A stretch of DNA of 64,000 nucleotides from GCA_000165345.1 CM000429.1:480001-544000, one strand, 5' to 3'. Counted from the stretch's first letter, positions 74 to 23,047 are shown. The notes: a model not told the origin generated them from the sequence alone. Made by a program: numbers and translations.

Positions 74-3000
74 ATGCAGAATAAAATGTTTAGTGATTTA
101 AGGATTCAAGTAATAATTTTGAACATAATCTTGCCAATTTTTTTGGAGTTATTTATTATTAAAAATATTTATGCAAATAACATAGAACCAAATCAAAAAA
201 ATATTTGCTTTGAAGAAATATTTTCAAATCTTAAAATCGAATATACTCATGGTTGGGATTTAAATAAACTGAAAAGCACTTTTCAAAACAAGTTTGATAA
301 TGAATTAATGAAAGACCTGATTTTAAGTATTTTGATATCAGATCTTAATCACCAAATATTTGATGAAAAGACAAAACTAGAAAATATTAATTCAAACAAC
401 TACTCGAATATTAAAGGCTTTTTTTCAATTTTCCAACTTTTACTTAATTTCTGGGACAATAAAAAGGCAGAATTTAGTGAGGATTTTAACTTAACTCACT
501 ATATAAATTATATTATATTGGATGATAATTTTCAATTAAATGATAATTATTCAATTATTCAAAAAAATAGAAAATCTTTTTTTGCACTAATTAAAAAAAA
601 TAATTTATATATTGAAGATTATAATAGTGCGTCCGCCTTGTATCTTCATTTCATAAATATTAGTTTGCGTCGCTTAACTCACCTTCACGCATGCAATTAT
701 GATTCAAATAATCTTAATATGTTTGAAATATATAATAGTATTTATTTATTATCGATTAATACACTAAATATATTATTGGAAATTTTATCTGAAGAACATA
801 AACAGGAAATTGCTGTAAAAGAAATACTACCAACCTTGATACAATTTTTATCAAATAGCAAGCATTTTAACAAAGACTCCTGCTTTACCCAATATCAATT
901 ACGCCTTGATAGAGTTAATTCAGCAAATCATTCAAACGATTTGTCTGTAAAGTACAATTACAAAGAGCCCATAGTTATTTTTGAAATATTTAATTTTATT
1001 AATTCTAATATCATGAAATATGTAAAAATTCAAAATGAAGAACTAGTTCTTGATGAAATTAATAAAATAATAAATGACTTATTAATTATGAATATTGAAA
1101 AATGGATTTATCATTATGTGGCATTAAATGACAGTTTAGTAGTTAGCAAACTTCTTGAAATTGCTGATCAGATATTAATACTTATCATGAAGAATAAGAA
1201 AAATAAATTAAACATATGGGTTACTGAAATCTTAACATCAAAGAATTCTGCACTAAAAAAACTGATTGTAAAAAGGAGCGTGGATAATATGTCAATATTA
1301 TTCAAAATTTTAGATTACTTTTTATTAACGAATAAAACTGAGGTTTTTATATCTGAAATTTTTCCTTACTTAATAGATCAATTAAACGATAAAGATATCA
1401 ATGTCAAATATGAATTCTGTAAATTGATTATACATATTATGGAAAAAATGGAAATGATATTTATACTTCCCTACGGTAAATTTTGTATTGAAAAATGTTT
1501 AGGCGATAAAGAATTCATTATAAAATTAATTGGTTTAAGGTCAGCAAATAAAATATTTAACAGAATAATTTTTGTTGAAAACAAATTAGGCATTAATGAA
1601 TCTGAGATTATTATTCATGAATTAATTGAATCTATTATTACTAACCTCGAAAGTATACTATTTATTAAGTATTATCCACTTATTAAAGAAATTGGAATTA
1701 CATTAAAATACATATACAACTATTCAAGAAAATACAATGATTGGTTAGTCTTTTTTTTATTTTTGAATAAATTCTTTAGAATAAAAGAAAAGAACACAAA
1801 ATGTTTAATAAATATATTTAAACTAAGTAAATTTTCTAGAAATGAGTTTTTGATCTATTATTTCAAAGACATGTTTAAGGACGAAGATAAATCTGCAAGT
1901 GAAAATTACAAAATGGCATCTACAGTTAAACAAGAAAATAATCAGATTTATCCACCTACTTACACAGAATTAATATTGTATACCTTGCCATGTCTTATAA
2001 ATCAATTGAGTTTAAATGATAAATTTGAGCAGATTGTTTTTATTTTATCTTTGATTCAAAAAGAAGCGAAATATAATATTCGAAAACAATTTATTCATGA
2101 TGCATTAAAACTTTTAACAAGAAAAAAAATTTATAATCAATTGTGCGAGCCAGATTTTAAAAAGCCACTACCTATTATTAAAGGAGAATATTTAGGGTCA
2201 ATTTATAATCATAGCAAACTCATTTCTAAATATGATAACAATACAAACATAGGTAATGGATTTAATATTTATCAGAAACTTCTATATATCAATGAAGAAA
2301 TTTACTCTTGTTCTACAAATAATTCAATTAATGCTGGAATATACTTGCATAAGTTAAATGTTCATGATAAGCTTCATTATTGGAATTTAATTACTGATCA
2401 ACTTAATAATTATATTTTTAAATTCAATAATAATAGTTTTGTGACTAGTATGATGACATTATCAAATGAATTTAGCATTATTACAGGGAATAACATTGGA
2501 ATCTTATCCAAAATTAATATTGATACAAGTATAATAACGGTTAACGAGCATTCATATAAAAATGAAAATTTGTTATTTAAACAATGCAGCTTCTTAAATT
2601 CAAAATCCCCAATTATAATATTTGTTGGAAAGATAAAAATTTATTCTAAAGAATTGATTATTTCTGCATATAGTAACGGGGATATATATTTTATTGAATC
2701 AGAGAGGTTGCAAACAGAAATCAGTTTCTCAATTCCCCTATCTTTGGGGAGTGTAATTGACTATTCAGTTGACAATAATTCTAATGATCATTTAATTTCA
2801 TTCGCCACTGATGAAAATATAGTTATTATTATTGATTTATTTTATTTGAAGAGTATGAAAATTTGGAAAATTGATCATGAATTAAGAATTACAAATATTG
2901 GTAGTTCAAATATTAATGATCAATCTTCAAAAATATTGCTTAACTTTAATAGAAATGGTGCTTTTGCACTTTTTGATCCAATTAGTGGTGAAATTGATTC

Positions 3001-3769: not shown

Positions 3770-6559
3770 ATGGCTGTTGGAAATATCAATTCTAATGACG
3801 AACTTGAAGCTGCTATGAAAAATATGAAGAGCCATGATTCAAATAAAAGAATACAAGGAATTCAGCTATTTGCTGACGTAATAAAAACAGATTGCAGTCT
3901 CTTATCAATTGAATACATTAAAAAGCTTCAAATTGTTTTTGAATGTGAGCACAATATAGAAGTGCTATTGCAACTTTCTAAATCGTGTACAAATTTGGGT
4001 TTGATTTCACTTTTCGAGGAGCAAATTTGTGGGTTAAATATTAATGAGTTTGATTTCTTTAGTAAGGGTTGTATTTTTAACGCTGCAAAACAAATCATAT
4101 ACAATGCCTACGATGATCTTTCGACTAGATTTCATACACATAAAAGAAAATCAAATAAAAATTCATTATTTACCATAGAAAAAATAATAACTTTAGTACC
4201 AATCTTACAAGACATTGCTGAACTTGATGACGTATATGTAAGGCTAGAAACAATGAAATCTCTCAAATCACTCATTAATATTATTACATTTCTTATTGAA
4301 GAAAACTTAAATAACATACACAAAAGTACTGAATATAACGAATTGGAATTAATATTCAATCATTCTCTTGAAATTTTTCAGAAGTTGGCAAACTCTGATA
4401 TTCTTAGCCACAAAATTCTATCATGCCATATTATTCCTTTAATACTGGAGCAGAAAAGACTTTCTGAAATTTTTGTTGATGAAAAAAATATTTTACTTGC
4501 TAAATATTCAGATTTTTGTGTCCATCCTGCACCTATTTTAAGAAAACATGCATCTAAAGTGTTCAATGCTATTTTGGAACAAATTGAATTTGAAGAAGGT
4601 ATTATCGAAATTCTCTTATTTCCAATCATTAGGAATTTCTGTTGCGATGAGCAAGAATGTGTGAGGCTAATTGCAATAGAAAATATAGAGGCATTTTTCT
4701 TACAAGTTTTCGAATTGGCCAACTCTAATAAAGAATATATTAAAAAAGTAATTATTTTTTTTGAAAAGCTACAACCTTTTATATTTATTCTTTATAATGA
4801 TGTAAGCTGGAGGATTAGATCTAATGTATCAAGGCCGATAATTAATATTTACTCAAAATTGTCTCGCTTGGTTACTTCCAGTGAAGCAGAAAATATTGAT
4901 ATTCATCGTATTAGAGAGCAATCAATAATTAAATCCAATCAAGTAAAAAATGAAAATCTAAAAATTGTGGGCAATGAGAACGAATCACAAAATTTAGATA
5001 TTTCAATCGATGGGGATAACTTGTGTTCGCATCCTTGCTCAAAAGATAATTCAAGCGTGAACGATATAGACTATTTAAATAAGCTAGCATTGATTCTAAC
5101 TCAATTATTGATGGATCTAGAGTCTGAAACAAGAATTAGCACCCTTTCAAACGTACTAAAAACAATTGAAGAACAAACAATTGAGTCCAGGCCCACTATC
5201 ACAGATGATAAATCACCAATCCCATATATTTCAAAAATTTTGTTTTATGATGTAATTATTCAACAAATAAATAATTCAAATACTCTCCTAACAGATCAAA
5301 ATGCTGCAGTAAGAATTAATCTATCAAGAATAACAAAAATTATAATGCTAGTTAAGACAAACTTTGAAATTGACGAATTTATGAATATTGAACTCGAAAA
5401 TGCCTTCGATCATTTAGTTACAAAATTGACTCATGATGAGGACGACCAGGTGCGACAAAGCGTTGTATTAGCTCTCTGCTCGGGAGTCTCCGAATCAACT
5501 GACATTAACTTTTTGATAAAAAAGATAGTCTTACCCCACTCAAGCTCAATGATTCAGGATAACTTTTGGCGAGTTAGGTATTGTTCCATTATTCTTCTCA
5601 TTTTATCGCTTTATAAATTGCTATCATCGTACTATGAGGAGGACGAAATTTGGAATTGCAAGATTAATTTTAACAATGATGAAAACACTAAAGATTTTTT
5701 GAATTATTATGAAGGAACTATAGATGTTTTGATAGAGCTCATAATTATGAATATTACAGACAAGACGAGCATCATTAGGCAGCTTACTTCCATTTTCTCA
5801 TTGCCATTATTATCTTCTTGGTTCGGACTTCAATGGACAAAAAACCAACTTTGGAGTAAGGATATATTACCAATGATAACAAACGAAAAATCATATATAA
5901 TGCGGATAACTGGGTTACTTTCAGCTAATTCAATAATATCGGGAGTATGCATTCGTTCATTCAAGGAGCTGCTAGATGTTATTAAGCACGTAATACAGCT
6001 TATTTTAATTGTAGCCCCTACACTAGATCCAGGAAACGAAGATTATCGGCCTTATCAAGAACATTTAGAAGTCATTAATAGCCAATTGACCGCGAATCAA
6101 AGTGGTCGAAATGAACTTATAAAAAATACCGAATTCTTAAATAGTGGTTTAGCGCAAAAGAATATATCTAGCTTGAGCTCACAAAGCAATCATCTAAATG
6201 AATACCTTCCTTTGATTAATGCTTCAAATCTAACTTTGTCTCTTAATCCATCAGACAAAAACCATAATACTAGAAAAAAATCTGAAAGTATCCCATTCGA
6301 CTTCAGTGAGTTCCAATTAGAGATTATTTCAGTGGTCCTACAATACTCTGTAAATGACATAGTTCCAAACGTTCGGGCAAAAGCGTTTCAAACGATTAAC
6401 TCGATCATTGATCGAAATGGATTAGGAAACTTCCAGAAATCAGTCGTCGACCAGGTAAAATATTCATATGAAAACGATCCAGATTCTGACGTCAGGACTT
6501 ATTGTCGATATATTTTGAAAAAAACCATGGAGGACGAAATAAATGAAGATTATAACTAA
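3770..6559 (+). CDS. Hypothetical 929-aa protein, probably an alpha-helical repeat (HEAT/ARM-like) protein
   Basis: Long ORF starting at a true ATG. It shows repeated amphipathic helical segments (e.g. VRAKAFQTINSII, QVRQSVVLALCSG) but no catalytic motif. Confidence 0.4.
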   Translation: MAVGNINSNDELEAAMKNMKSHDSNKRIQGIQLFADVIKTDCSLLSIEYIKKLQIVFECEHNIEVLLQLSKSCTNLGLISLFEEQICGLNINEFDFFSKGCIFNAAKQIIYNAYDDLSTRFHTHKRKSNKNSLFTIEKIITLVPILQDIAELDDVYVRLETMKSLKSLINIITFLIEENLNNIHKSTEYNELELIFNHSLEIFQKLANSDILSHKILSCHIIPLILEQKRLSEIFVDEKNILLAKYSDFCVHPAPILRKHASKVFNAILEQIEFEEGIIEILLFPIIRNFCCDEQECVRLIAIENIEAFFLQVFELANSNKEYIKKVIIFFEKLQPFIFILYNDVSWRIRSNVSRPIINIYSKLSRLVTSSEAENIDIHRIREQSIIKSNQVKNENLKIVGNENESQNLDISIDGDNLCSHPCSKDNSSVNDIDYLNKLALILTQLLMDLESETRISTLSNVLKTIEEQTIESRPTITDDKSPIPYISKILFYDVIIQQINNSNTLLTDQNAAVRINLSRITKIIMLVKTNFEIDEFMNIELENAFDHLVTKLTHDEDDQVRQSVVLALCSGVSESTDINFLIKKIVLPHSSSMIQDNFWRVRYCSIILLILSLYKLLSSYYEEDEIWNCKINFNNDENTKDFLNYYEGTIDVLIELIIMNITDKTSIIRQLTSIFSLPLLSSWFGLQWTKNQLWSKDILPMITNEKSYIMRITGLLSANSIISGVCIRSFKELLDVIKHVIQLILIVAPTLDPGNEDYRPYQEHLEVINSQLTANQSGRNELIKNTEFLNSGLAQKNISSLSSQSNHLNEYLPLINASNLTLSLNPSDKNHNTRKKSESIPFDFSEFQLEIISVVLQYSVNDIVPNVRAKAFQTINSIIDRNGLGNFQKSVVDQVKYSYENDPDSDVRTYCRYILKKTMEDEINEDYN

Positions 6560-6594
6560 TCACGTGTTTGATCCTAATTCCTATTTATCTGCAT

Positions 6595-8517
6595 TCATAA
6601 ATTATTTTTCTGCACTTTTTTGGCTTCTTTGGCTAACTTTCTTGCTGCTCTCTCAGCTGCAATTTTTTCCCTGTTAGTGTGATAGGCATTCCTCCTTTCA
6701 ATGTCTTTAGTGTTTTCCCTAGCTCCCGATTCAGTAAGCATTTTGATTAATAGGTCTGGAGATTCTCCGAGCTGTACGGTTAGATTGTATACAAGATTAA
6801 TCTTGTCATTCTCTCGTTTAGAATCAACAATATCTCTTGTGAAGTAGCCTATTCTTTCGAATTGATATCTATTCATCTTTATTTCTCCTTTACTATTAAA
6901 AAATTCATCATTCAATAAGTTCTTTTCTGAAAAGCCATGTATTACTACAAGACTCTTGTTATTAATGAATTGCCTCCAATCTTTATCCTGATTTTCAGGC
7001 TCAGGAAGCGTAAAAAGACGGCCATAAAGCCTGAACTCAACATTAGTAACATTGCTTGTAGACAACCAATGTATCGCAGCCAATTTTTTCTTGTTAACAT
7101 TTGAATCATTTTCATTATCAGAGGAATGAATAATGCAATGTACTTCTTTTACTTCCTTAGTATCTGTATCAATTATAGCATTTTTACATGTGATTGCATA
7201 TGAATACTTTAGTCTAACTGAACCGCCAATAAATAGCCTTTTAAAATCACCAGGTGGCTGCTGAGAATCAATTTCTTGATTTTCATCGAACCAAAAATCA
7301 CTTTTTTCAATCCACAAATTTCTCGTCAAGTACAGGACTCTTTCGCCCATGTCAATATTATCATCAGGATGGTTTTTTACAGTTATTTCAACTGCTTCTT
7401 TTTGGAAACACTCATCCCAATTAATAATGACTACTTTTAGTGGTTGAATGCAGGCAAATCTTCTTTGGCATATGCTATGCAAATTTTCTTTCACACAATC
7501 CTCTAATAGTTGAATATGTATCATTTGATCTCTTTTTGAAGCGCCTATCTTATCGCAAAAGTCCCACAGAGACTGTGGAGGGTACCCCTTTCTCCTTACA
7601 GCAGAGAGGGTAGGCATTCTAGGGTCGTCCCAGCCAGCTACATGTTTTTCATTAACTAGTAAAAGAAGTTTCCTTTTACTTAGTACCAAATATGTCATAT
7701 TTAATCGTGCAAATTCAATCTGTCTTGTTTTGGTAATTTCTAGCTCAGATTGTAGCCAATCATACAACGGTCGATGAAGCTCAAACTCCAATGTACAAAT
7801 ACTATGAGTTATTCCCTCTATTGAATCACTTTGGCCGTGAGCAAAGTCATACATTGGATAAATAACCCATTTGTCGCCAGTATGGGGATGGGACTGTTTG
7901 AGAATCCTATATAAAATCGGGTCACGTAAATTTGGATTTCCATGTTTCATATCTATCTTTGCCCTTAAAACGCATTCGCCTTCATCACATTTTCCATCTT
8001 TCATTCTCTCAAAGAGTTCCATATTTTCGTTAATTGAACGATTTCTATATATAGATTCTACTGCAGGAGTATTTGAATCTCCCCTGTTTTTCCTAATTTC
8101 TTCTACTGTCTGATGATCAACATATGCCTTCCCAGCAAGAATTAACTTTTTTGCCCACTCATACAGTTGGTCAAAGTAATCGGATGCGTAGTATTTATGT
8201 TCGCCCCAGTCAACACCCAGCCATCTAACATCTTCTTCTATTGCGTCTATATACTGCTGCTCTTCAGAATATGGGTTTGTGTCATCATAGCGTAGGTGGA
8301 ATCTGCCATCATAAATCTTTGCTATCCCGTAGTTTAAACAGATTGATTTTGCATGTCCTAAATGAAGAAATCCATTTGGTTCGGGAGGAAACCTTGTGAC
8401 AATTTTGTTATGTTTACCATTCTTTAGATCATCTTCTACTATCTGTTTAATAAAATTTGTTGTATTTGATACAACATTAATATGTTCATTTTCAATTTTC
8501 AATCCTAAAGAAGCCAT
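6595..8517 (-). CDS. QARS: Glutaminyl-tRNA synthetase (class I aaRS)
   Basis: HIGH motif (FPPEPNGFLHLGHAKS). The catalytic and anticodon-binding core resembles GlnRS/GluRS throughout, e.g. the LRYDDTNP block. True ATG start. Lys-rich C-terminal tail. Confidence 0.85.
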   Translation of the reverse strand: MASLGLKIENEHINVVSNTTNFIKQIVEDDLKNGKHNKIVTRFPPEPNGFLHLGHAKSICLNYGIAKIYDGRFHLRYDDTNPYSEEQQYIDAIEEDVRWLGVDWGEHKYYASDYFDQLYEWAKKLILAGKAYVDHQTVEEIRKNRGDSNTPAVESIYRNRSINENMELFERMKDGKCDEGECVLRAKIDMKHGNPNLRDPILYRILKQSHPHTGDKWVIYPMYDFAHGQSDSIEGITHSICTLEFELHRPLYDWLQSELEITKTRQIEFARLNMTYLVLSKRKLLLLVNEKHVAGWDDPRMPTLSAVRRKGYPPQSLWDFCDKIGASKRDQMIHIQLLEDCVKENLHSICQRRFACIQPLKVVIINWDECFQKEAVEITVKNHPDDNIDMGERVLYLTRNLWIEKSDFWFDENQEIDSQQPPGDFKRLFIGGSVRLKYSYAITCKNAIIDTDTKEVKEVHCIIHSSDNENDSNVNKKKLAAIHWLSTSNVTNVEFRLYGRLFTLPEPENQDKDWRQFINNKSLVVIHGFSEKNLLNDEFFNSKGEIKMNRYQFERIGYFTRDIVDSKRENDKINLVYNLTVQLGESPDLLIKMLTESGARENTKDIERRNAYHTNREKIAAERAARKLAKEAKKVQKNNL

Positions 8518-14064: not shown

Positions 14065-15222
14065 TCACTCAAACCTTTTCTTTTTTCTAGAATCAGTATG
14101 ATTTGACCTTTCCTCTTTTTTGCATAGTCTGCAAGTGCATGTAAAATGATAATTCTGGATAAGGCTTGTTCGTTCAGCCAATGGAAGAGTGTTATCAACA
14201 TATGAAATAGTTAGTTCCTCCCCCTTCATAATATCTCTATTTGTTGTAACATATATTGTGCTGTCATCTATAGTATATACATGGCAATTCGGGTCACAAC
14301 TATGGTTGAAACATGATTGTATTACGCATATACACGCACCTTTAATAATTCCAATTGTAGGTTCATTATCAGATATGTTTCTATTATCTAACTTACCTGA
14401 AAGATGAAGACCCCAAATATTTAATCCTTGTGAATTAAGGGTTAATTGACCAACTATTTGTTCAATTGTCTCCCTACTAAGTAGTGAATCAATGATAAAA
14501 CTATCAGAGAAAGAATCATTTATTTGATCGGAAAGTACGCTATGAATGCAATTTATAAGAGAATTGAAGTTAATTTCAGGGAACAATGCTGTAGTTGGGG
14601 CTACAAAGTTTTCCATTGATTTAGTTCCTAATTTATATGCATGATACAAATTTTCGTCTTTCATACCCAGTTCTTGCCAATAAAAATAAATATCTGCAGC
14701 CATTTGGGCAATGCAACGGGATACTGCTTCAGCTGTTATTGGAATATCCCCTAATTTATCTACGGATCTTTGGTAATTTCTTAAATTCAAAATACCCTTT
14801 GTACCATTGATATAATAGCCCCATCCACTCCTTAATGAAGAGGAATTTGGATCATAATCTTCAAAGTTAACTCCTGATATTTTTTTAAAACAAGATCTAC
14901 TGCAGATCTTTTTTTCTAATCCGAGCGTACTTAACGATAAAAAACCACTATTTTCAGGGTAATTAATCTTTAGGCAATTTTCGCAAAAAATCAGATTTTC
15001 TAGTTTAGCAAATGAAGTTTTAATTGGCCATGAAATGTAGGGTACTTCTTGGAAAAAATTTGTACCATCTGGAATCTCCTTGCTAGAGTGAATATGTTTT
15101 CCTTTATTTTCTGAATAGAAAATATCAAAATAATTCTCATTCCCTGTCAAGGAATTTATTTCATCCAATAAAATGTGGTAATTATTTTCGATTTCGCACT
15201 TTCCCTCAATACAGCTATCCAT
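14065..15222 (-). CDS. SET-domain protein lysine methyltransferase
   Basis: SET C-terminal signature (NHSCDPNC.., ELTISY) followed by a Cys-rich post-SET (FTCTCRLCKKEE). True ATG start. Confidence 0.65.
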   Translation of the reverse strand: MDSCIEGKCEIENNYHILLDEINSLTGNENYFDIFYSENKGKHIHSSKEIPDGTNFFQEVPYISWPIKTSFAKLENLIFCENCLKINYPENSGFLSLSTLGLEKKICSRSCFKKISGVNFEDYDPNSSSLRSGWGYYINGTKGILNLRNYQRSVDKLGDIPITAEAVSRCIAQMAADIYFYWQELGMKDENLYHAYKLGTKSMENFVAPTTALFPEINFNSLINCIHSVLSDQINDSFSDSFIIDSLLSRETIEQIVGQLTLNSQGLNIWGLHLSGKLDNRNISDNEPTIGIIKGACICVIQSCFNHSCDPNCHVYTIDDSTIYVTTNRDIMKGEELTISYVDNTLPLAERTSLIQNYHFTCTCRLCKKEERSNHTDSRKKKRFE

Positions 15223-15336
15223 TATACTGAAATATAATTTTGATATAATGGACTAGTTATCAATTTTTTTTAGGATGTTACTGTTGACGAATAATTGGCG
15301 GTTTCTACAAATATTAAAAATACAATCACAGAAATA

Positions 15337-17118
15337 ATGAGTTTACAGAATTTTCCAATAATCCCCATCATTTTGCCTAAGATTGATGCTATATATAAGT
15401 TTAATAAAGTCTCTCCCTTTAATAAAAAACAGTTCAATGCCAGCCATTACAATAAACCATTTGAAAATGAGAGCAATAATAAAGGCATAATTAACAAACT
15501 AATCTATATAGAGAAACAACTTCCATATATTTTATTGGCCAGCTGCAAAGCTTCAGCCATACCTGTCAAAGACTTTAAGGAATCAATTGAGCGTTTTTTA
15601 ACGATTTCAAAAGATAGTGTTCAGTACTACCCAGTTATCAACGAAACAGATGATTATGTAAGGGTTAATATCAAACTTCAAAGCCATAATCTTGCAAAAA
15701 AAATCGGTCATTTCTTAGATATCATTAATCAAAGCTATTCTAATCTTCAGAGTTCAACGATTATTAACAATTGGGAGATTTATGATGGCAATAATGGGAA
15801 AAAAATTACTATTGAAATAAACTCCTTAGACAATAGAGGAACAATTTATATTCAAATTCCTGCAGATAAAAGCTCGCCTGCAAATTTAGAATATGTTAAA
15901 TCAAAAAATTCCTTATCCAAGAATGATTTGGAAGCTATCCACTTCCTTATGAAACCTGTAATCGGCAATGGTCATTTAGAAGAAACAAATTTAGAAAAGA
16001 ATTTATTAAATAAACGTTTATTTTTGGATAAAATCAAATCATTTGGTAATAAACAGACAGAAAAAGAAATAATCGATAACTTAGACCGATTATTTGACAG
16101 TTTCAGCAAGGACCTTTTTACCGATACTTTAATTGATTTAAATACTGTTTTGAGTTCTGCGGAAAATAAAGCAAAAAAATTTGATCAACATTCTAGGGAA
16201 TCAGATTTTTTAAATACAGATAGCAGCTCAAATATTTATCACGATGATAGTGTCATACCTTTATTGGAAAATTTGGGTGTGCAAGTGTTTTTAAATCGAG
16301 ATAATTGCGATTCACATAGAAATTTATGGGACTCTTTGGGAGGATATCAAGATGTTAAACGCCAAATCGAGGAACACATACTATTAAGTTTCAAATATCC
16401 AGATGTTCTTGATAAGATTGTTAATGGAACAAGGGCGCAAAGTAATTCAAACAACAGGCCTAAATTAATCTTATTTGAAGGTCCGCCAGGAACTGGTAAG
16501 ACAACTTCTGCTAAAATAATTGGTAATTCAATTCAAGTGCCTCTAATATATGTTTCGCTCGAAAATATTGTCTCAAAATGGTATGGGGAAAGTGAAACCA
16601 AGCTAGCTCAGATCTTCGATATTGCAAAAAAATTTAATGAAGGGTGTATAATATTTATTGATGAAATTGACACTTTGGCATCTTCAAGAGATAAAACGTT
16701 TAGTATGCATGAAGGTTCAAAAAAAATACTCTCTGTGTTATTGAGAAAGTTGGATGGTTTTGATACATTAAATTCAAAGACTCTCTTGATTTGCGCAACA
16801 AATCGTAGAAGAGATATTGATGAAGCGTTTCTAAATAGAGTTGATACAACTGTACTATTTAATCTACCGAATGAAAATGAAAGGGAACTGATTTTCAAAC
16901 AGTATGCAAAACATTTAACATTTGAAGAACGAATGGTGCTTGCGAAAATGTCAAAAAAGTTATCTGGAAGGTCAATTCGTCACGTTTGCCTAGAAGCAGA
17001 AAGGGAGTGGGCTTCCATGATTTTGAAAAAGAAAGAAAAAGGCGAATACCAACGGGATGAAATTGAGCTACCTACAATTGAGATCTATAAAGAAGCATTA
17101 AAAAAAAGGGTTAGCTAG
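15337..17118 (+). CDS. AAA+ ATPase (Msp1/ATAD1/katanin-like clade) with a ~330-aa N-terminal extension
   Basis: Walker A GPPGTGKT, Walker B IIFIDEID and second region of homology present. The SKWYGESE motif is typical of the meiotic-clade AAA. The track start at 15295 is a TTG, so I used the first ATG at 15337. Confidence 0.7.
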   Translation: MSLQNFPIIPIILPKIDAIYKFNKVSPFNKKQFNASHYNKPFENESNNKGIINKLIYIEKQLPYILLASCKASAIPVKDFKESIERFLTISKDSVQYYPVINETDDYVRVNIKLQSHNLAKKIGHFLDIINQSYSNLQSSTIINNWEIYDGNNGKKITIEINSLDNRGTIYIQIPADKSSPANLEYVKSKNSLSKNDLEAIHFLMKPVIGNGHLEETNLEKNLLNKRLFLDKIKSFGNKQTEKEIIDNLDRLFDSFSKDLFTDTLIDLNTVLSSAENKAKKFDQHSRESDFLNTDSSSNIYHDDSVIPLLENLGVQVFLNRDNCDSHRNLWDSLGGYQDVKRQIEEHILLSFKYPDVLDKIVNGTRAQSNSNNRPKLILFEGPPGTGKTTSAKIIGNSIQVPLIYVSLENIVSKWYGESETKLAQIFDIAKKFNEGCIIFIDEIDTLASSRDKTFSMHEGSKKILSVLLRKLDGFDTLNSKTLLICATNRRRDIDEAFLNRVDTTVLFNLPNENERELIFKQYAKHLTFEERMVLAKMSKKLSGRSIRHVCLEAEREWASMILKKKEKGEYQRDEIELPTIEIYKEALKKRVS

Positions 17119-17256: not shown

Positions 17257-20190
17257 ATGAATTTCAAGACAGCCTTATCTAGCTTTCCAACACTAATTGT
17301 TCTTCTGGTAATAAGTTGCTTCACTCTATTCACGTTTGCAAAATCTCATAGAATTAAAACATCTAACTCGATTAATTATAATTCAGAATTTCATTCAAAA
17401 GGGGGATCTACCGACCAAAATGTTATTTCTAAAATACCTAATCTTCGCCCATCGTCTGTAATTCAGGCAACAAATTTAAACCCCACTAATGGGCCTATTA
17501 ACTCAATAGTAAGGATATCTATACATGGAATAGGTTTTTCATTGTTTCCAAAATTATTTGTACATTTTGATGTAACTGAAGGCCCTTATGAAGTGGTGCC
17601 AGTTACTACAATTTCAGACACGTTGTTGGAGGTTGATACACCATCCAGTTTATCTTATGGTGAATCAGGTAAATCAGTTCTGGTTAGTGTATTTTCTCAT
17701 CCGGATATAATGCTTCAAAGTTCCAATGCATTAATATTCCGCTTTTATGAGGTACCAGTGATTACACTAATTTCTCCTAGCCATGCAGGAATGTCTGGAG
17801 GATCAGAAATAAAAATCTTTGGAACTGGTTTATTTGCATCTGATGATTTGAAGTGTCTCTTTCAAAGCAAAGAAAGATCTAAAATCGTAGATGCAACCTA
17901 CTCAATGAGTAAATTTGATACTTTGACTATGAAAAATTTTCTTCATGAAAATCATAATAAAAATATTCTTGAAAATAATTTACTTACTCAGTTAAACAAA
18001 AATTTATCAGAAGTTGAAATTAAAACCATATTAGACAATATTCAAAATCATAGTCCAATGCAATCAATAATTTGCGAGTCACCATCATGGACTGTATCAG
18101 AAACAGCATCTCTCTCGATCTCATTTAATGGAGTTCAGTATCACATATGTACTGATAGATTTACTTTTGAGGAGGAATCTTCTCTTTTTGGAAATGTTGC
18201 TCATGTAGTTAAAGAACGAGATAATCCTTCTGAGATTGTTTCAGAAGATGAAATTGAATTGAAAAATTCACAACAAAAAACGAATAACAACAAGATTGTC
18301 TCTTCTGAGATCATCTTGAGAAATTTTAACTCAAAATCGAGTTCACACTACAATAATCATAACCATCATATAAACGATTTACACAAGCATATTGATAACT
18401 CAGGCAATACATATACATTAAGTAATTCTTCTAACGCTTCTTTGTTACACAGTGATTATGGGCTTTTCTTAGAGATTGTCATTTTATTTTACTCATCATT
18501 TATCTTCGGCACTATTTGCAAGTTTATTGGGCTGCCACTGTTACTGGGATACATTATTGGCGGATATGTAGTTGGACCTTCTGGATTTGGTTATATATCG
18601 CAGCCAATCCAAATTATATCAATTTCACAAATTGGTGTGTGTCTGATTCTATTCACATTAGGACTTGAATTTTCTCTTAAGAGAGTCCTTTCAATAGGTA
18701 AATCGGTCATTTACTGTGCAGTTTCTTCAATATTAGTTTTCGTTTGTTTATGCAGTGCATATTCTATTTGGATTGGAACCCCAATAAATGAAGGAATTTT
18801 TATAGGGTCATATATATCAATGAGTTCAACTGCAGTTGTAATTTGCGAGCTACAAATTGAATCAAACGAAAGTATGGTTACAATTGGAATTTTAATATTA
18901 CAAGACTTGCTATTAGGAATTGTGCTTGCACTAATTCCAGCTTTACAAACTAATTCTGTTGAAAGTGTGTCTTCAAAAACTTCAAATACAAATTCTTTCA
19001 CAAATGTTTTTAACCAGACAAAGGTTTATCAACTAATGGTTTTTGTAACTCATTTTTGTTTGTTTTTATGGAAGATCATTAAACCCTTTATAATACTTTC
19101 GATATTTATTTTGATATCATTTATCGTAAAAATAATAATTTTTCCAGTCATTCTTTTTGTTCTCACGAAAACCAAAAGTCGCGAAATTATCCTGATCGGA
19201 ATTGTAAGTATTGTGCTTTGTATTTCATCATTAACTGAATATCTGGGACTTTCTATGGAAATGGGCTCGTTTGTTGGAGGAGTAATTCTCTCAAGTCTTT
19301 TTGGTGAAGAGGATACATATAACTTTAAACACGACTTTATTCAATCTATAGAGTCATTAAAATGGGTTTTTTCGATGCTATTTTTTACGAGTATTGGACT
19401 GGTTATTGATGCAACTTTCATTTGGGACAATTATTGGACGATTGGATATGTTTGTTTATTCATATCAATAATTAAATTCTTCGTAAACTTTCTAATATTC
19501 TTTGCATTTGGGCACATGATTAAATTATCTGCTTTTACATCCTTCATGCTAGCAAATTTAGGTGAATTTGGATTTGTGTTAGCGTCAAAGGGAATATCAC
19601 TTGGAATAATATCCAGAAAAGTCTACCTTATTCTTGTAGCAACTACTGTAATTTCGCTTTTATCTACCCCAATTATTCTTAGGATATTCTCTATCATTCT
19701 GAAAAGAAGGAATTCAAATATTCCATCAAATGAAAATAACTATAAAAAATTTAATGTTAAAAATAATGAAATCACCTCAATTAAACAGAAGTTCAATTTT
19801 TCATTAGGTAGCTCGTTCTATAATGCAAATAAAAGAAGAGCACTTAATATAACAAACATTATAAAAAATTTGGGTATTTTTAGTGGAAATAGTCACAGCT
19901 TAGATTCTTCAACAAAAGATTATAAATTTGATATATATATTAGAAATAATTATTTGAATTCTCGTTTTCAAGAGGACAGAATTTCATATTCAAATGTCTT
20001 TGAAAATTCAAGAGCTAATCCAAACATTGACTTCTCATTAAATGAAAATGAATTGGAAGATCTAAGTCAAGATGTTGTTTCTAATGAATCAAAGTTTGGG
20101 TGTAAAACTTCAAGTATTAGTTTAGAGAAAATAGACGAATTTACACTTGCTCATGTCACTAATTTGGGCAACTCGTCCTCAAAAATGTAG
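17257..20190 (+). CDS. Secreted/membrane protein with N-terminal IPT/TIG-like domains fused to a CPA2 (KefB/KEA-type) cation:proton antiporter membrane domain
   Basis: N-terminal signal peptide. Two Ig-like TIG-type segments (NPTNGPINSIVRISIHGIGF.., PSHAGMSGGSEIKIFGTG). A 12-13-helix domain follows, carrying the KefB/KEA-type motif LLGYIIGGYVVGPSGFG. Confidence 0.6.
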   Translation: MNFKTALSSFPTLIVLLVISCFTLFTFAKSHRIKTSNSINYNSEFHSKGGSTDQNVISKIPNLRPSSVIQATNLNPTNGPINSIVRISIHGIGFSLFPKLFVHFDVTEGPYEVVPVTTISDTLLEVDTPSSLSYGESGKSVLVSVFSHPDIMLQSSNALIFRFYEVPVITLISPSHAGMSGGSEIKIFGTGLFASDDLKCLFQSKERSKIVDATYSMSKFDTLTMKNFLHENHNKNILENNLLTQLNKNLSEVEIKTILDNIQNHSPMQSIICESPSWTVSETASLSISFNGVQYHICTDRFTFEEESSLFGNVAHVVKERDNPSEIVSEDEIELKNSQQKTNNNKIVSSEIILRNFNSKSSSHYNNHNHHINDLHKHIDNSGNTYTLSNSSNASLLHSDYGLFLEIVILFYSSFIFGTICKFIGLPLLLGYIIGGYVVGPSGFGYISQPIQIISISQIGVCLILFTLGLEFSLKRVLSIGKSVIYCAVSSILVFVCLCSAYSIWIGTPINEGIFIGSYISMSSTAVVICELQIESNESMVTIGILILQDLLLGIVLALIPALQTNSVESVSSKTSNTNSFTNVFNQTKVYQLMVFVTHFCLFLWKIIKPFIILSIFILISFIVKIIIFPVILFVLTKTKSREIILIGIVSIVLCISSLTEYLGLSMEMGSFVGGVILSSLFGEEDTYNFKHDFIQSIESLKWVFSMLFFTSIGLVIDATFIWDNYWTIGYVCLFISIIKFFVNFLIFFAFGHMIKLSAFTSFMLANLGEFGFVLASKGISLGIISRKVYLILVATTVISLLSTPIILRIFSIILKRRNSNIPSNENNYKKFNVKNNEITSIKQKFNFSLGSSFYNANKRRALNITNIIKNLGIFSGNSHSLDSSTKDYKFDIYIRNNYLNSRFQEDRISYSNVFENSRANPNIDFSLNENELEDLSQDVVSNESKFGCKTSSISLEKIDEFTLAHVTNLGNSSSKM

Positions 20191-20381: not shown

Positions 20382-21755
20382 ATGGATGACTTAAAAACCA
20401 TTGTTTTGAGACAAAATGAAATTCTAAAAAAACTAGAAACTGCATTATCAAATGCAATTATTAGAATTGAAAGCATTGAAAGGTATTGTAATAAGGATAA
20501 TAACAGCGTTGCGGATAATTTATCACTAATTTTGCCCAAAGAAACTGAGTACGGCCTAATAAAAAACAACTCTTGTAAATCAAAGGATCTAAATAAAGAA
20601 ATTGGCAATTTTGATTTTAATGCAGTTAATTCTGCTTTTAAATTAATTCCAATCGACTTTTTAAAAATGGATTTTAATAATCACCCTATTAATTTGATTA
20701 ATAATAGTAATGTTAAGAGTTCACATTTTATTAAGAATTTAAATAGTAATAAGTTTGTAGTTAACTCCAATTTTTATCATTCTGCTATAAACACAGATTT
20801 TGATCATCAACGACTAGAAGATTTATCAGAAAACATGTTTGATAATACATCCACAAATATTACTTCAAAACTACCAGAACTAAAAACTAATATCAAACCT
20901 GAAAATCAAGAGCTTGAAATTTTTTGGGAAGATAAAGAAAACAATTCTAATGCCTCAAATAACAATTTTAAACTTCAAACATGCATATGCGAGAATGAAT
21001 CAAAATCTGATGATAAAGAATTTTTTCCAAAAGAAACACTCAATTTTATAGCAAATAAGCTAGATATGTTTAATATGTTCTACAATGGAAACAAAAATCA
21101 CATTCTTTCTAACTGTATAGGAAAAAACGCACTAAATATTAAATCATCAAATAAACTATATATTTTTGACGAAGAAGATAATTCTAGTATGAGGCTTGAT
21201 GATCCTCTAGATTTAGAGATTGCAGAAAACGAATTTTACTACTTAAAGGGGCATATTAAAAGAAGTTCTACAAGAGATCGTCCTAGAAGCTCTAGTCTAG
21301 ATAACTGTCATCTCTTTAATTGTCTATATCCTAAAACAAGAGAGATCAAGAATAGCTGCGATAATATTGACAATTTAGAAGTTTATTCTAGCAATCAGCT
21401 AACCCCAGTAGATAACAGTTATTTAATAAGAGAAATAAAGTACCACAAGCCCTATGAAAAGATTGTAGGGTATGTACAAATTCCTTACAATGCATTTTTA
21501 AGCAGATCTTTTGAAAGTTCTGGTCACGATAAGATTAAGAACAAAACTCCTTTGAAAGAAGTAAATTATTTAGATTCGCGCAACGTACATAAAAAGATCA
21601 GAAGTCCTTACGAAGAACGTAATATTTTTTCAAGTAATATTTATCAATATAATAGGCAGATCGCCCATATTAAAGTTAACTGCCCCATTTTTTATCAATT
21701 TTTTTGTTTTCAACGATACCCTATTTTAATTTTAAGGCCGCTTTTCAGTAATTAA
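20382..21755 (+). CDS. Hypothetical Asn-rich protein (457 aa)
   Basis: ORF starting at a true ATG. No recognisable domain; low-complexity N-rich sequence. Confidence 0.35.
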   Translation: MDDLKTIVLRQNEILKKLETALSNAIIRIESIERYCNKDNNSVADNLSLILPKETEYGLIKNNSCKSKDLNKEIGNFDFNAVNSAFKLIPIDFLKMDFNNHPINLINNSNVKSSHFIKNLNSNKFVVNSNFYHSAINTDFDHQRLEDLSENMFDNTSTNITSKLPELKTNIKPENQELEIFWEDKENNSNASNNNFKLQTCICENESKSDDKEFFPKETLNFIANKLDMFNMFYNGNKNHILSNCIGKNALNIKSSNKLYIFDEEDNSSMRLDDPLDLEIAENEFYYLKGHIKRSSTRDRPRSSSLDNCHLFNCLYPKTREIKNSCDNIDNLEVYSSNQLTPVDNSYLIREIKYHKPYEKIVGYVQIPYNAFLSRSFESSGHDKIKNKTPLKEVNYLDSRNVHKKIRSPYEERNIFSSNIYQYNRQIAHIKVNCPIFYQFFCFQRYPILILRPLFSN

Positions 21756-22405: not shown

Positions 22406-23047
22406 ATGGAAACCAATCCCGAAGAGAGTAACCAATTGGTTAATACAAGCGCTGAAGTAATTAGAACATACCTTAATAAAATTGTAACCAATGATAACTT
22501 GGATACACTTACACCGAAAAAAGTCAGAGAAGAGTTGGAAAAAGCTCTTGGGCTTCCTTTGGATAGCTTAAAGCCAAAAAAAAACCAAATAAATGACTTA
22601 ATAGACGCCATTATTTTAGAAATAAAAGAAAAAAATTCTACCGATTCCCCAATCGAGCAAATTACGAACAACGTATCAAATGTTGATTATAAAGACGAAG
22701 AAACCAATGCCAATAACGATGAGGAACATAACGACTTAAATATAAACATCCCAGAAATAACTAAACAAAATGGAAAAGCAACAAAGAGAAAGCAAATTTC
22801 GATGTCGATTGAGGAATTTCTAGAAAAATCCCAAACGCTAAGCCTAAGTATCAATGGTTCAAGCGAAAAACTTGCTATTTCTCCGAGACAATTTAGCACA
22901 GGAAGTGTTGGTTGGTACTACGGAGGCAAAGTCCCGCTTCCGGTTGGAGACGATTTGGAAGTCTTGTGTCAAATTTCAATCAATTGTACAGTAGTAGGTA
23001 GCAAAACGTGGTCCCAAAACATATCCAAAAAGTCGAAAATTAAATGA
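22406..23047 (+). CDS. DEK C-terminal (DEK_C) domain protein
   Basis: The N-terminal block TPKKVREELEKALGLPLDSLKPKKNQINDLIDAIILEI fits the DEK-C helical DNA-binding module. True ATG start. Confidence 0.45.
   Translation: METNPEESNQLVNTSAEVIRTYLNKIVTNDNLDTLTPKKVREELEKALGLPLDSLKPKKNQINDLIDAIILEIKEKNSTDSPIEQITNNVSNVDYKDEETNANNDEEHNDLNINIPEITKQNGKATKRKQISMSIEEFLEKSQTLSLSINGSSEKLAISPRQFSTGSVGWYYGGKVPLPVGDDLEVLCQISINCTVVGSKTWSQNISKKSKIK

Follow-up and report, generated by a model that had tools for sequence, protein, structure and literature searches.

A tandem IPT/TIG ectodomain fused to a Kef/KEA-type cation:proton antiporter domain in Cryptosporidium and gregarine parasites

The window analysed here, a 64,000-nucleotide stretch of Cryptosporidium parvum DNA (GCA_000165345.1, CM000429.1:480001-544000), carries a single ATG-to-stop open reading frame (ORF) in which a signal sequence, two IPT/TIG domains and a membrane domain of the Kef/KEA-type CPA2 family follow one another (Table 1). 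The frame holds no internal stops, and its 977-residue translation is identical to the C. parvum Iowa II protein EAK88387.1, to QOY43409.1 and to other deposited proteins; the boundaries proposed in an initial annotation of this DNA, 17257-20190 on the plus strand, are thus exact. Profile HMMs, the predicted structure and the ORF agree that this is a genuine single-gene fusion. The gene itself is not new, having carried an annotation ever since the genome of 2004, and its pairing of PF01833 with PF00999 is already precomputed in public resources. The database name of the protein carries the words 'bacterial origin'. A literature search found neither a discussion of the TIG/Na_H_Exchanger fusion nor transport assay, localisation or expression data for the C. 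parvum gene. The design is unusual, though not unprecedented, and is common to Cryptosporidium and gregarine parasites.

Table 1. Features of the C. parvum TIG-CPA2 gene, numbered from the first nucleotide of the window
Feature	Residues	Position	Strand	Basis
Complete ORF (977 aa + stop), putative K+/H+ antiporter with TIG ectodomain	1-977	17257..20190	+	ORF, exact protein match, orthologues
N-terminal signal sequence, hydrophobic core at about aa 5-27	1-28	17257..17340	+	Hydropathy, source annotation, P0186 homologue
IPT/TIG domain 1 (TIG1)	67-165	17455..17751	+	Pfam TIG, AF2, Foldseek MET/plexin IPT
IPT/TIG domain 2 (TIG2), split by an insertion	167-305	17755..18171	+	Pfam, AF2, conservation
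Helical insertion within TIG2, lineage-variable	220-266	17914..18054	+	AF2, low identity
Conserved post-TIG motif EEESSLFGNVAHVVKERDxPSE, predicted helix	305-326	18169..18234	+	Conservation, AF2
Low-complexity N/S/H-rich spacer	327-379	18235..18393	+	Composition, identity
Juxtamembrane motif DNSGNTYTLSN(P/S)SNASLLHSDYGLF, sequon N393-A-S	380-403	18394..18465	+	Conservation
CPA2 (Kef/KEA-type) cation:proton antiporter membrane domain, 13 TM by homology	404-815	18466..19701	+	Pfam, NCBIfam, KefC alignment
'QD' ion-binding motif Q549-D550 (= KefC Q155-D156)	549-550	18901..18906	+	KefC alignment, invariance in 13/13
C-terminal tail (162 aa), N/S-rich, no recognisable domain	816-977	19702..20187	+	Pfam, composition
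Conserved C-terminal motif SISLEKIDEFTLAHVTNLG, Cryptosporidium-specific	951-971	20107..20169	+	Conservation

The polypeptide opens with a hydrophobic segment after K4 (Kyte-Doolittle peak of 2.29 at aa 3-31), in line with the signal peptide that had been proposed and that the source annotation of the protein likewise states. The assignment is one of hydropathy and holds for a cleaved peptide and a signal anchor alike, either of which is expected to put the TIG region outside the cytosol. The gregarine homologue P0186 has at its N-terminus a classic signal peptide, MKLFWILLRFLICVLG.

Two TIG-like segments had been read in the N-terminal region, and profile HMMs and structure prediction both give it a TIG fold. 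PF01833 matches the whole protein in two stretches (E 1.2e-8, 35.2 bits against a gathering cutoff of 20.9) and the N-terminal fragment at 39.6 bits (cutoff 20.9). In 171 per-domain matches to the tandem TIG pairs of other proteins, the alignment runs from profile position 25 or lower to position 135 or higher (about aa 84-194), so that each takes in TIG1 and the first part of TIG2. Two beta-sandwiches make up the AF2 model of aa 60-330 (pLDDT 85.1, pTM 0.77): TIG1 at model residues 11-105 with a pLDDT of about 90, and TIG2 with strands at residues 109-159 and 209-246. The top PDB matches of this model in Foldseek are MET IPT domains (6gcu, 5lsp) and the IPT tandems of plexins A1 (IPT3-6, 5l7n), A2, A4 and C1, with E values of 1.7e-8 to 2.5e-7 and a probability of 1.00; the TM-scores are moderate (0.39-0.47), owing to inter-domain geometry and the insertion.

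Within TIG2, the best Pfam stretch is aa 167-208, and the cysteine pair C200/C273 is near-invariant, unrelated tandem-TIG proteins included. The helices of the insertion (model residues 164-204, aa 223-263) interrupt the domain in a segment that is just 37.5% identical in Cryptosporidium and mostly missing from P0186. Mean pairwise identity within the genus is 76% for TIG1 and 79-84% for TIG2; the constraint on the ectodomain (76-84%) matches that on the transporter core, a 412-residue domain at 79%.

Conservation along the protein peaks in the motif that follows TIG2 (aa 305-326), with 95% mean identity in Cryptosporidium and discernible counterparts in P0186 (ESESLLDKVAEQVKDR) and in a second homologue from outside the genus, P0181 (SSLLGDVAKGIIER); its helix, at AF2 model residues 251-263, is predicted with a low confidence of about 55. 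The 53-residue spacer beyond it (aa 327-379) has 46% mean identity, against 76-84% in the TIG domains, and the region enclosing it, aa 306-400, is 17.9% S and 16.8% N. The spacer shows no regular structure in the full-length AF2 model, which was built from an 11-sequence Cryptosporidium alignment and, at a mean pLDDT of 35.7, is of low confidence and serves for rough secondary structure only. Because the spacer is long, poorly conserved and of low complexity, rigid coupling of the TIG module to the transporter is disfavoured. Identity in Cryptosporidium is 84% in the juxtamembrane motif (aa 380-403), where the N-glycosylation sequon at N393 is conserved and D380, N384, L388, S389 and D400 are invariant, P0181 and P0186 included.

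The membrane domain is what it had been taken for, a CPA2 antiporter. PF00999 (Na_H_Exchanger) covers aa 414-809 (E 2.9e-44; 151.9 bits against a cutoff of 26.2; model positions 4-370 of 375), the hallmark motif LLGYIIGGYVVGPSGFG is located at aa 428-444, and a crude hydropathy plot gives an unbroken TM block at aa 401-816. All five NCBIfam matches are CPA2 models (TIGR00932, KefC, KefB, YbaL and MagA), the first four with E values of about 1e-33 to 1e-36; the named bacterial homologues are all annotated CPA2; and PDB matches are to KefC (8bxg, E 9e-18) and NapA (E 7e-15) only. Against TIGR00932 (CPA2 subfamily), the score of 126 bits is under the curated cutoff of 238.3, though the E value is 1.9e-36. 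Divergence and an inserted loop account for this shortfall (an extra loop relative to KefC lies at aa 566-590), which makes automatic naming less secure and takes nothing from the homology; with the KefB, KefC and YbaL equivalog models, 121-122 bits compare with cutoffs of 752-804. By homology, the domain is assigned to CPA2 (TC 2.A.37), Kef/KEA branch.

The alignment with KefC covers KefC residues 8-176 and 190-379. KefC S125, S126, T127, Q155, D156, K307 and E337 correspond to S523, S524, T525, Q549, D550, K740 and E770, which are invariant in the 11 Cryptosporidium sequences, P0181 and P0186. The elements of the KefC K+ site, i.e., the 'QD' of TM6, the S-x-T break of TM5 (S523, T525) and the TM11 lysine (K740), are kept, and the sole replacement at that site is of KefC S336 by glycine (G769). 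In KefC, the roles of the K+-site residues have been defined, and the QD motif takes part in K+ binding and selectivity (PMC11150392). Since the C. parvum protein scores below the curated TIGR00932, KefB and KefC cutoffs, its ion specificity (K+ or Na+) would follow from the QD motif only. KefC has 13 TM helices, an N-terminus that lies outside the cell and a C-terminus inside, and its TM1 forms the dimer interface with TM8 (PMC11150392). Homology to KefC and the crude hydropathy plot predict the same TM number and orientation for the C. parvum protein, which would place the TIG module in the extracellular space or a lumen, next to TM1, and the 162-residue tail in the cytosol.

An N-rich tail of about 300 residues had been described; the composition stands (16.7% N, with 15.4% S, in aa 816-977), the length does not, as 162 residues follow the last TM helix. 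Identity within Cryptosporidium is 45% over the tail and 88% in the motif at aa 951-971, which was not found in the tails of P0181 or P0186. A Pfam scan of aa 799-977 returned zero family matches, KTN/RCK included, and a KTN domain hidden in the tail is rejected for want of such a match. In the whole-protein scan, PF02254 and PF02080 are absent, whereas the bacterial homologues have them.

Full-length orthologues are found in 10 Cryptosporidium clusters, all ten of them, from independent assemblies, with the TIG-CPA2 fusion. Among the 150 listed of 530 profile matches, at least two proteins from outside the genus carry it as well: P0186 (EukProt Gregarina sp. Poly1, transcriptome-derived), colinear over aa 69-830 (E 1e-47), and P0181, encoded on a eukaryotic contig of 45% GC (L001) with CDC50 and Isy1 genes as neighbours. 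The orthologue search that the initial annotation had called for thus finds the same fusion throughout Cryptosporidium and in these gregarine-type relatives. Identity between fusion lineages is only 23-29%. In an NJ tree in which the fusion proteins, as the sole eukaryotic members, were sampled together with 20 bacterial CPA2 sequences, the fusion CPA2 domains are monophyletic (100/100). The nearest non-fusion matches are bacterial, with Synechococcales best at 29% identity, in a comparison made without eukaryotic KEA or TMCO3 sequences. Word-indexed homology searches with the 13-sequence alignment and with P0181 alone gave no additional fusion proteins; the former missed even P0181 and P0186, so absence there is not evidence of absence. 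A metagenome scan yielded only a 2.2-kb fragment (L002) that matches aa 629-808 at 29% identity and is uninformative on the fusion.

The best relative of solved structure is E. coli KefC (8BXG, E 9e-18), which like KefB is a glutathione-gated K+/H+ exchanger of the CPA2 family. The alignment reaches essentially the entire 13-TM domain, and the retained equivalents of QD, S/T, K307 and E337 would imply the same elevator-type electroneutral K+/H+ exchange. Unlike KefC and KefB, the C. parvum protein is without a C-terminal KTN/RCK domain and so should lack a glutathione or nucleotide gate; it also differs from KefC in its predicted extracytosolic N-terminal region of about 400 residues with two TIG domains, in the loop at aa 566-590 and in the glycine at the position of S336. 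With KTN absent, the TIG region and loop added, and scores far below the cutoffs, it is not a KefB/KefC equivalog.

The KTN-less CPA2 core is shared with KEA clade II, i.e., plant KEA4-6 and animal TMCO3. The N-terminal extension of TMCO3, outside the transporter, is a coiled coil, as the name indicates. In Chanroj et al. (2012; PMC3355601), clade II is defined as KTN-less CPA2, clade II genes are reported in Apicomplexa, with KEA-like apicomplexan proteins placed there, and N-terminal extensions are known among KTN-less eukaryotic CPA2 proteins, e.g., TMCO3; another study has KEA4-6 functioning in the endomembrane system (PMC6624313). The C. parvum protein may be likened to clade II by the absence of KTN and by that statement on Apicomplexa, and it differs in its tandem IPT/TIG extension, of a kind not described for KEA4-6 or TMCO3.

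In fold, tandem arrangement and predicted extracytosolic site, the TIG module resembles the IPT/TIG stalks of MET, RON and the plexins and the arrays of fibrocystin/PKHD1-type proteins. Those proteins are either receptors with a single membrane pass or large proteins of the cell surface, whereas the C. parvum module sits on a secondary transporter with 13 predicted TM helices and has a helical insertion of about 45 residues in TIG2. Outside the fusion family, the closest ectodomain relatives among the matches listed are giant protist TIG-array proteins, e.g., P0085 and P0201 from Fabomonas tropica, whose TIG repeats are likewise placed outside a predicted multi-pass ion-transport-type domain. 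Proteins of this type have 8-34 TIG repeats, against 2 in C. parvum, and instead of CPA2 their membrane part is a TRP-like domain or one that lacks an annotation (TRP domain PF06011: 35.2 bits against a cutoff of 28.5 in P0085, a weak match in P0201). The earlier view that TIG domains are not found on ion antiporters or transporters was too strong, as these protist TIG arrays precede a TRP-type channel domain.

That a secreted-TIG gene and a neighbouring CPA2 transporter gene have been read as one, an error the initial annotation itself had named, is as good as dispelled: no stop codon interrupts 2,931 nt, the same continuous protein recurs in the 10 Cryptosporidium clusters from independent assemblies, and the fusion is also present as one transcript in a gregarine transcriptome (P0186) and on the independent contig L001. 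The two-gene artefact is rejected on the continuity of the ORF and its conservation in assemblies and a transcriptome. Very improbable, too, is a degenerate transporter whose CPA2 domain is inactive and serves a TIG-based adhesin only as a scaffold or as its anchor in the membrane. The change of S336 to G769 and the scores under curated NCBIfam cutoffs would suit such a loss, but S523, T525, Q549, D550 and K740 do not vary between lineages whose identity is only 23-29%, and the whole 412-residue domain is 79% conserved in Cryptosporidium; as judged from the invariant ion-site residues, a dead transporter can be set aside.

Other readings concern the TIG tandem. A rather unlikely one takes it to be no more than a glycosylated stalk, or a determinant of folding, ER exit or sorting, and gives it no part in transport regulation. 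The flexible spacer, a TIG2 insertion that differs between lineages and the conserved sequon at N393 all fit this role, as do the KTN-less TMCO3 and KEA4-6, which function in endomembranes and have N-terminal extensions of unrelated kinds (PMC3355601; PMC6624313); however, 76-84% TIG identity and retention since the gregarine split exceed the usual constraint on a spacer. A passive role of this kind overlaps with the explanation favoured below and does not exclude it. It is unlikely that the tandem binds an external ligand or a surface molecule of host or parasite and allosterically gates exchange, substituting for the KTN gate, even with the KTN/RCK domain gone and the Cryptosporidium ectodomain as constrained as the transporter core. 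The motifs at aa 305-326 and 380-403, which flank the spacer and are highly conserved, in gregarines too, could dock on the transporter, and the ectodomain is joined to TM1, the dimer-interface helix in KefC (PMC11150392). Standing against such gating, the 53 low-complexity, poorly conserved residues before the membrane argue against rigid mechanical coupling. IPT/TIG tandems do occur in ligand-binding receptors, e.g., MET and the plexins, but in those receptors the IPT domains serve chiefly as a stalk and not as the place where ligand binds. That an extracellular IPT/TIG sensor has replaced the cytosolic KTN gate in Cryptosporidium and gregarines, so that contact with a ligand on the surface of host or parasite directly switches K+/H+ exchange, is distinctly unlikely.

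The explanation favoured here, and probably the right one, is a functional KTN-less Kef/KEA-type K+/H+ exchanger whose outward-facing TIG tandem serves as an interaction module, in a fusion that arose once. The signal sequence would send the N-terminus with its two IPT/TIG beta-sandwich domains out of the cytosol, and the core would swap K+ for H+ electroneutrally, by the usual elevator mechanism, via D550, Q549, S523, T525 and K740. Because the protein lacks the KTN gate that bacterial Kef has in the cytosol, control of the exchanger would have to come from elsewhere. The TIG tandem, presumably tied to TM1 through the conserved helix, the flexible spacer and the conserved juxtamembrane motif, is most likely a module for protein-protein (or protein-glycan) interaction. 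It may stabilise the dimer, retain or target the exchanger to a particular membrane, or tether it to a partner, roles that domain type and conservation alone suggest; an external ligand might instead gate the exchanger directly, by allostery, though this is less likely. The fusion would have originated before the divergence of Cryptosporidium and gregarines.

The gregarine homologues support the close kinship of Cryptosporidium with gregarines and date the fusion before their split. In other apicomplexans, pH and K+ are signals controlling secretion, motility and egress, and replacement of the KTN gate by a sensor, if true, would tie pH and K+ in the parasite's cytosol or organelles to conditions outside. 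Drug targets are few in Cryptosporidium and its set of transporters is very small, so that a lineage-restricted K+/H+ exchanger exposed at the surface or in a lumen would be a reasonable one to study. With the TIG module merely a stalk or sorting tag, the fusion, though interesting, would amount to ordinary domain shuffling in a gene already annotated. Should the module regulate or position the exchanger, this would be a first case of an Ig-like ectodomain controlling a CPA2 transporter and would reveal by what means KTN-less Kef/KEA proteins of eukaryotes are controlled.

A single uninterrupted ATG-to-stop ORF of 977 codons spans 17257-20190 on the (+) strand, in a region of 30-32% GC, and its translation is identical to EAK88387.1 (C. 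parvum Iowa II) and to later C. parvum entries. The window thus belongs to a Cryptosporidium parvum chromosome. The fusion of TIG domains to a CPA2 antiporter proposed in the initial annotation is real and its boundaries are exact. The gene is already known: its annotation is two decades old, and the Pfam pair TIG + Na_H_Exchanger is precomputed in public resources. Members of the orthologue group go by conflicting public names ("K+/H+ antiporter of possible bacterial origin", "Sodium/hydrogen exchanger family protein", "hypothetical protein", and "sodium:calcium exchanger" in C. felis), and one member, XP_666409.1 (C. hominis TU502), is a 224-aa fragment. The flanking genes are unrelated and of a housekeeping type.

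Features of the fusion protein and genes flanking it (identity: mean pairwise identity among 11 Cryptosporidium sequences)
Feature	Window position (strand)	Residues	Identity	Remarks
SET-domain protein	14065-15222 (-)
AAA ATPase	15295-17118 (+)
Signal peptide			0.35
TIG1			0.76
TIG2			0.79-0.84
TIG2 insertion			0.375
Post-TIG motif		305-326	0.95	EEESSLFGNVAHVVKERD
N/S/H-rich spacer		327-379	0.46
Juxtamembrane motif		380-403	0.84
CPA2 core			0.79
Variable hydrophilic loop after QD-bearing helix	18952-19026	566-590	0.37	~25 aa; sequon N586-Q-T
C-terminal tail		816-977		N- and S-rich
Tail outside C-terminal motif			0.45
C-terminal motif	20107-20169	951-971	0.88	SISLEKIDEFTLAHVTNLG
457-aa N/S-rich ORF, directly downstream	20382-21755 (+)			No Pfam family at E<=1e-3
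DEK_C protein	22406-23047 (+)

The transporter domain matches Pfam Na_H_Exchanger at aa 414-809 (E 2.9e-44); all five NCBIfam matches are CPA2 models (TIGR00932, KefC, KefB, YbaL, MagA), each scoring below its curated cutoff, and the solved structures related to it are those of KefC and NapA alone. In the cryo-EM structure of KefC, K+ is bound by S125, T127, Q155, D156 and S336, K307 bridges the broken helices, and the "QD" motif, a Kef/KEA signature, is linked to K+ selectivity and electroneutral exchange (PMC11150392). A HMMER alignment, which begins at KefC residue 8 and covers 8-176 and 190-379, places S523, T525, Q549, D550, G769 and K740 opposite S125, T127, Q155, D156, S336 and K307, respectively. 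All six are invariant in 11 Cryptosporidium sequences and in P0181 and P0186, two fusion homologues from outside the genus; the fusion proteins thus differ from KefC at one K+-site position, where Ser is consistently replaced by Gly. Because of the QD motif, we infer from sequence that the core is an active K+/H+ exchanger. The loop following the QD-bearing helix is an insertion relative to KefC, lying in the gap between the two aligned segments. Hydropathy reveals an N-terminal hydrophobic signal (aa 3-31) and an uninterrupted TM block (aa 401-816). Given that TM1 is present and that KefC has its N-terminus outside, a TIG module placed behind a signal sequence makes topological sense; by analogy, the module is predicted to face the exterior or a lumen, and the tail the cytosol. 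From the end of the TM block, the tail measures 162 aa, instead of the ~300 aa originally reported (the sole numerical error), and a Pfam scan finds no domain in it, TrkA_N/KTN included.

The N-terminal TIG fold, also suggested initially, is confirmed, since HMM, profile matches and fold agree. Pfam TIG scores 35.2 bits against a cutoff of 20.9, in two stretches, and 171 profile matches span TIG1 and extend into TIG2. A full-length AF2 model from a shallow 11-sequence alignment had a pLDDT of 35.7; for aa 60-330, a 41-sequence alignment of Cryptosporidium orthologues, the gregarine homologue and tandem-TIG segments of profile-search matches yields a confident model (pLDDT 85.1, pTM 0.77). It contains two beta-sandwiches (aa about 70-164 and about 168-305), the second interrupted by a ~45-aa helical insertion (aa 223-263), and a lower-confidence helix on aa 310-322. 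The top Foldseek matches in the PDB are the IPT region of the MET receptor and the IPT tandems of plexins A1, A2, A4 and C1 (E 1.7e-8 to 2.5e-7, probability 1.00). The Cys pair C200/C273 of TIG2 is near-invariant, even in unrelated tandem-TIG proteins, and fits an oxidizing, extracytosolic location.

The full architecture is found in 10/10 Cryptosporidium clusters, including those of C. ryanae, C. xiaoi and the divergent C. serpentis (57% identity); the C. xiaoi cluster lacks a precomputed TIG match, yet its sequence is conserved. An ectodomain profile, searched exhaustively with HMMER against 1.84 billion representative proteins, returned 530 matches; those at the top are giant proteins bearing 10-34 TIG repeats. 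When the 149 non-query proteins among the best 150 are scanned with a local HMM of the Cryptosporidium CPA2 core, the core is detected in only two, P0186 and P0181, both carrying Pfam TIG + Na_H_Exchanger; none of these best 150 is a CPA2-bearing protein of another apicomplexan. P0186 (797 aa; EukProt Gregarina sp. Poly1) is colinear with the C. parvum protein from TIG1 to the CPA2 end (aa 69-830, 23% identity, E 1e-47), retaining the post-TIG and juxtamembrane motifs and missing most of the TIG2 insertion. P0181 (1201 aa), the most Cryptosporidium-like fusion outside the genus among these 150 (CPA2 core 218 bits), has the same domain order with longer inserts. It is encoded at 3950-7555 of a compact eukaryotic contig (L001, Logan SRR25454953; 11,736 bp, 45% GC) alongside CDC50, Isy1 and thioredoxin genes; the proteins next to it are unnamed singletons, and its source is probably a gregarine relative. 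In a rough bootstrapped NJ tree of CPA2 cores, in which 20 bacterial CPA2s are the sole comparison, the fusion proteins are monophyletic (100/100) and P0186 is sister to P0181 (94/100), which fits a single fusion event predating the Cryptosporidium/gregarine split.

Identity of the ectodomain is comparable to that of the CPA2 core, so the ectodomain is constrained as strongly as the transporter and is not a decaying appendage. An artefactual gene model is effectively excluded by the continuous ORF, conserved in independent assemblies, as is a dead transporter by the invariant ion-site residues. We consider it probable that the protein is a dimeric K+/H+ exchanger that lacks KTN but is active, and that its TIG tandem, outside the cytosol, is an interaction module under constraint. 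This module would stabilize the dimer, target the exchanger to a membrane or retain it there, or tether a partner. In a doubtful alternative that overlaps this reading, the tandem would be no more than a passive stalk or a sorting element. The originally proposed sensor, in which the TIG tandem would gate K+/H+ exchange, appears less likely still. In its favor, the cytosolic gate is missing, the ectodomain is joined to TM1, the dimer-interface helix, and the variable low-complexity tether between the TIG module and TM1 is bounded by two very conserved motifs; against it, the tether is flexible and no ligand or structural support for sensing is seen. In a tail that otherwise evolves fast, SISLEKIDEFTLAHVTNLG stands out; the gregarine-type homologues lack it, and it may be a genus-specific signal for sorting or regulation.

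Among the closest relatives of the ectodomain (best 150 of 530) are protist proteins that carry a long TIG array ahead of a multi-pass membrane module. One of them, P0085, has a TRP-type channel domain at its end (PF06011, 35.2 bits vs a 28.5 cutoff), to which P0201 (Fabomonas tropica) has a weak match (17.2 bits); each is a giant protist protein that combines 8-24 TIG repeats with DUF7630 and Ephrin_rec_like modules. TIG ectodomains thus recur on protist multi-pass ion-transport proteins. Six other TIG-array proteins of 4,700-7,300 aa (P0199, P0138, P0168, P0117, P0141, P0115) share, within their C-terminal ~900 aa, a conserved module with 7-11 TMs and motifs such as CFSSQ(F/Y)Y and F..YN(R/K)PW(I/L)..(Q/N)LP..LTPRTLRR.RPYL; both fragments scanned (P0199, P0168) lack a Pfam match, and the module may represent an undescribed membrane-domain family. 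According to Chanroj et al. (2012, PMC3355601), the KTN-less "KEA clade II", which includes plant KEA4-6 and animal TMCO3, also has genes in Apicomplexa, and PMC6624313 places the work of KEA4-6 in endomembranes. A foreign N-terminal extension on a CPA2 that lacks KTN is therefore already a familiar theme. What sets this protein apart is the nature of the extension, a tandem IPT/TIG module, on which a literature search found no publication. The architecture is a lineage-specific variant, shared by Cryptosporidium and gregarines, of a known kind of transporter.
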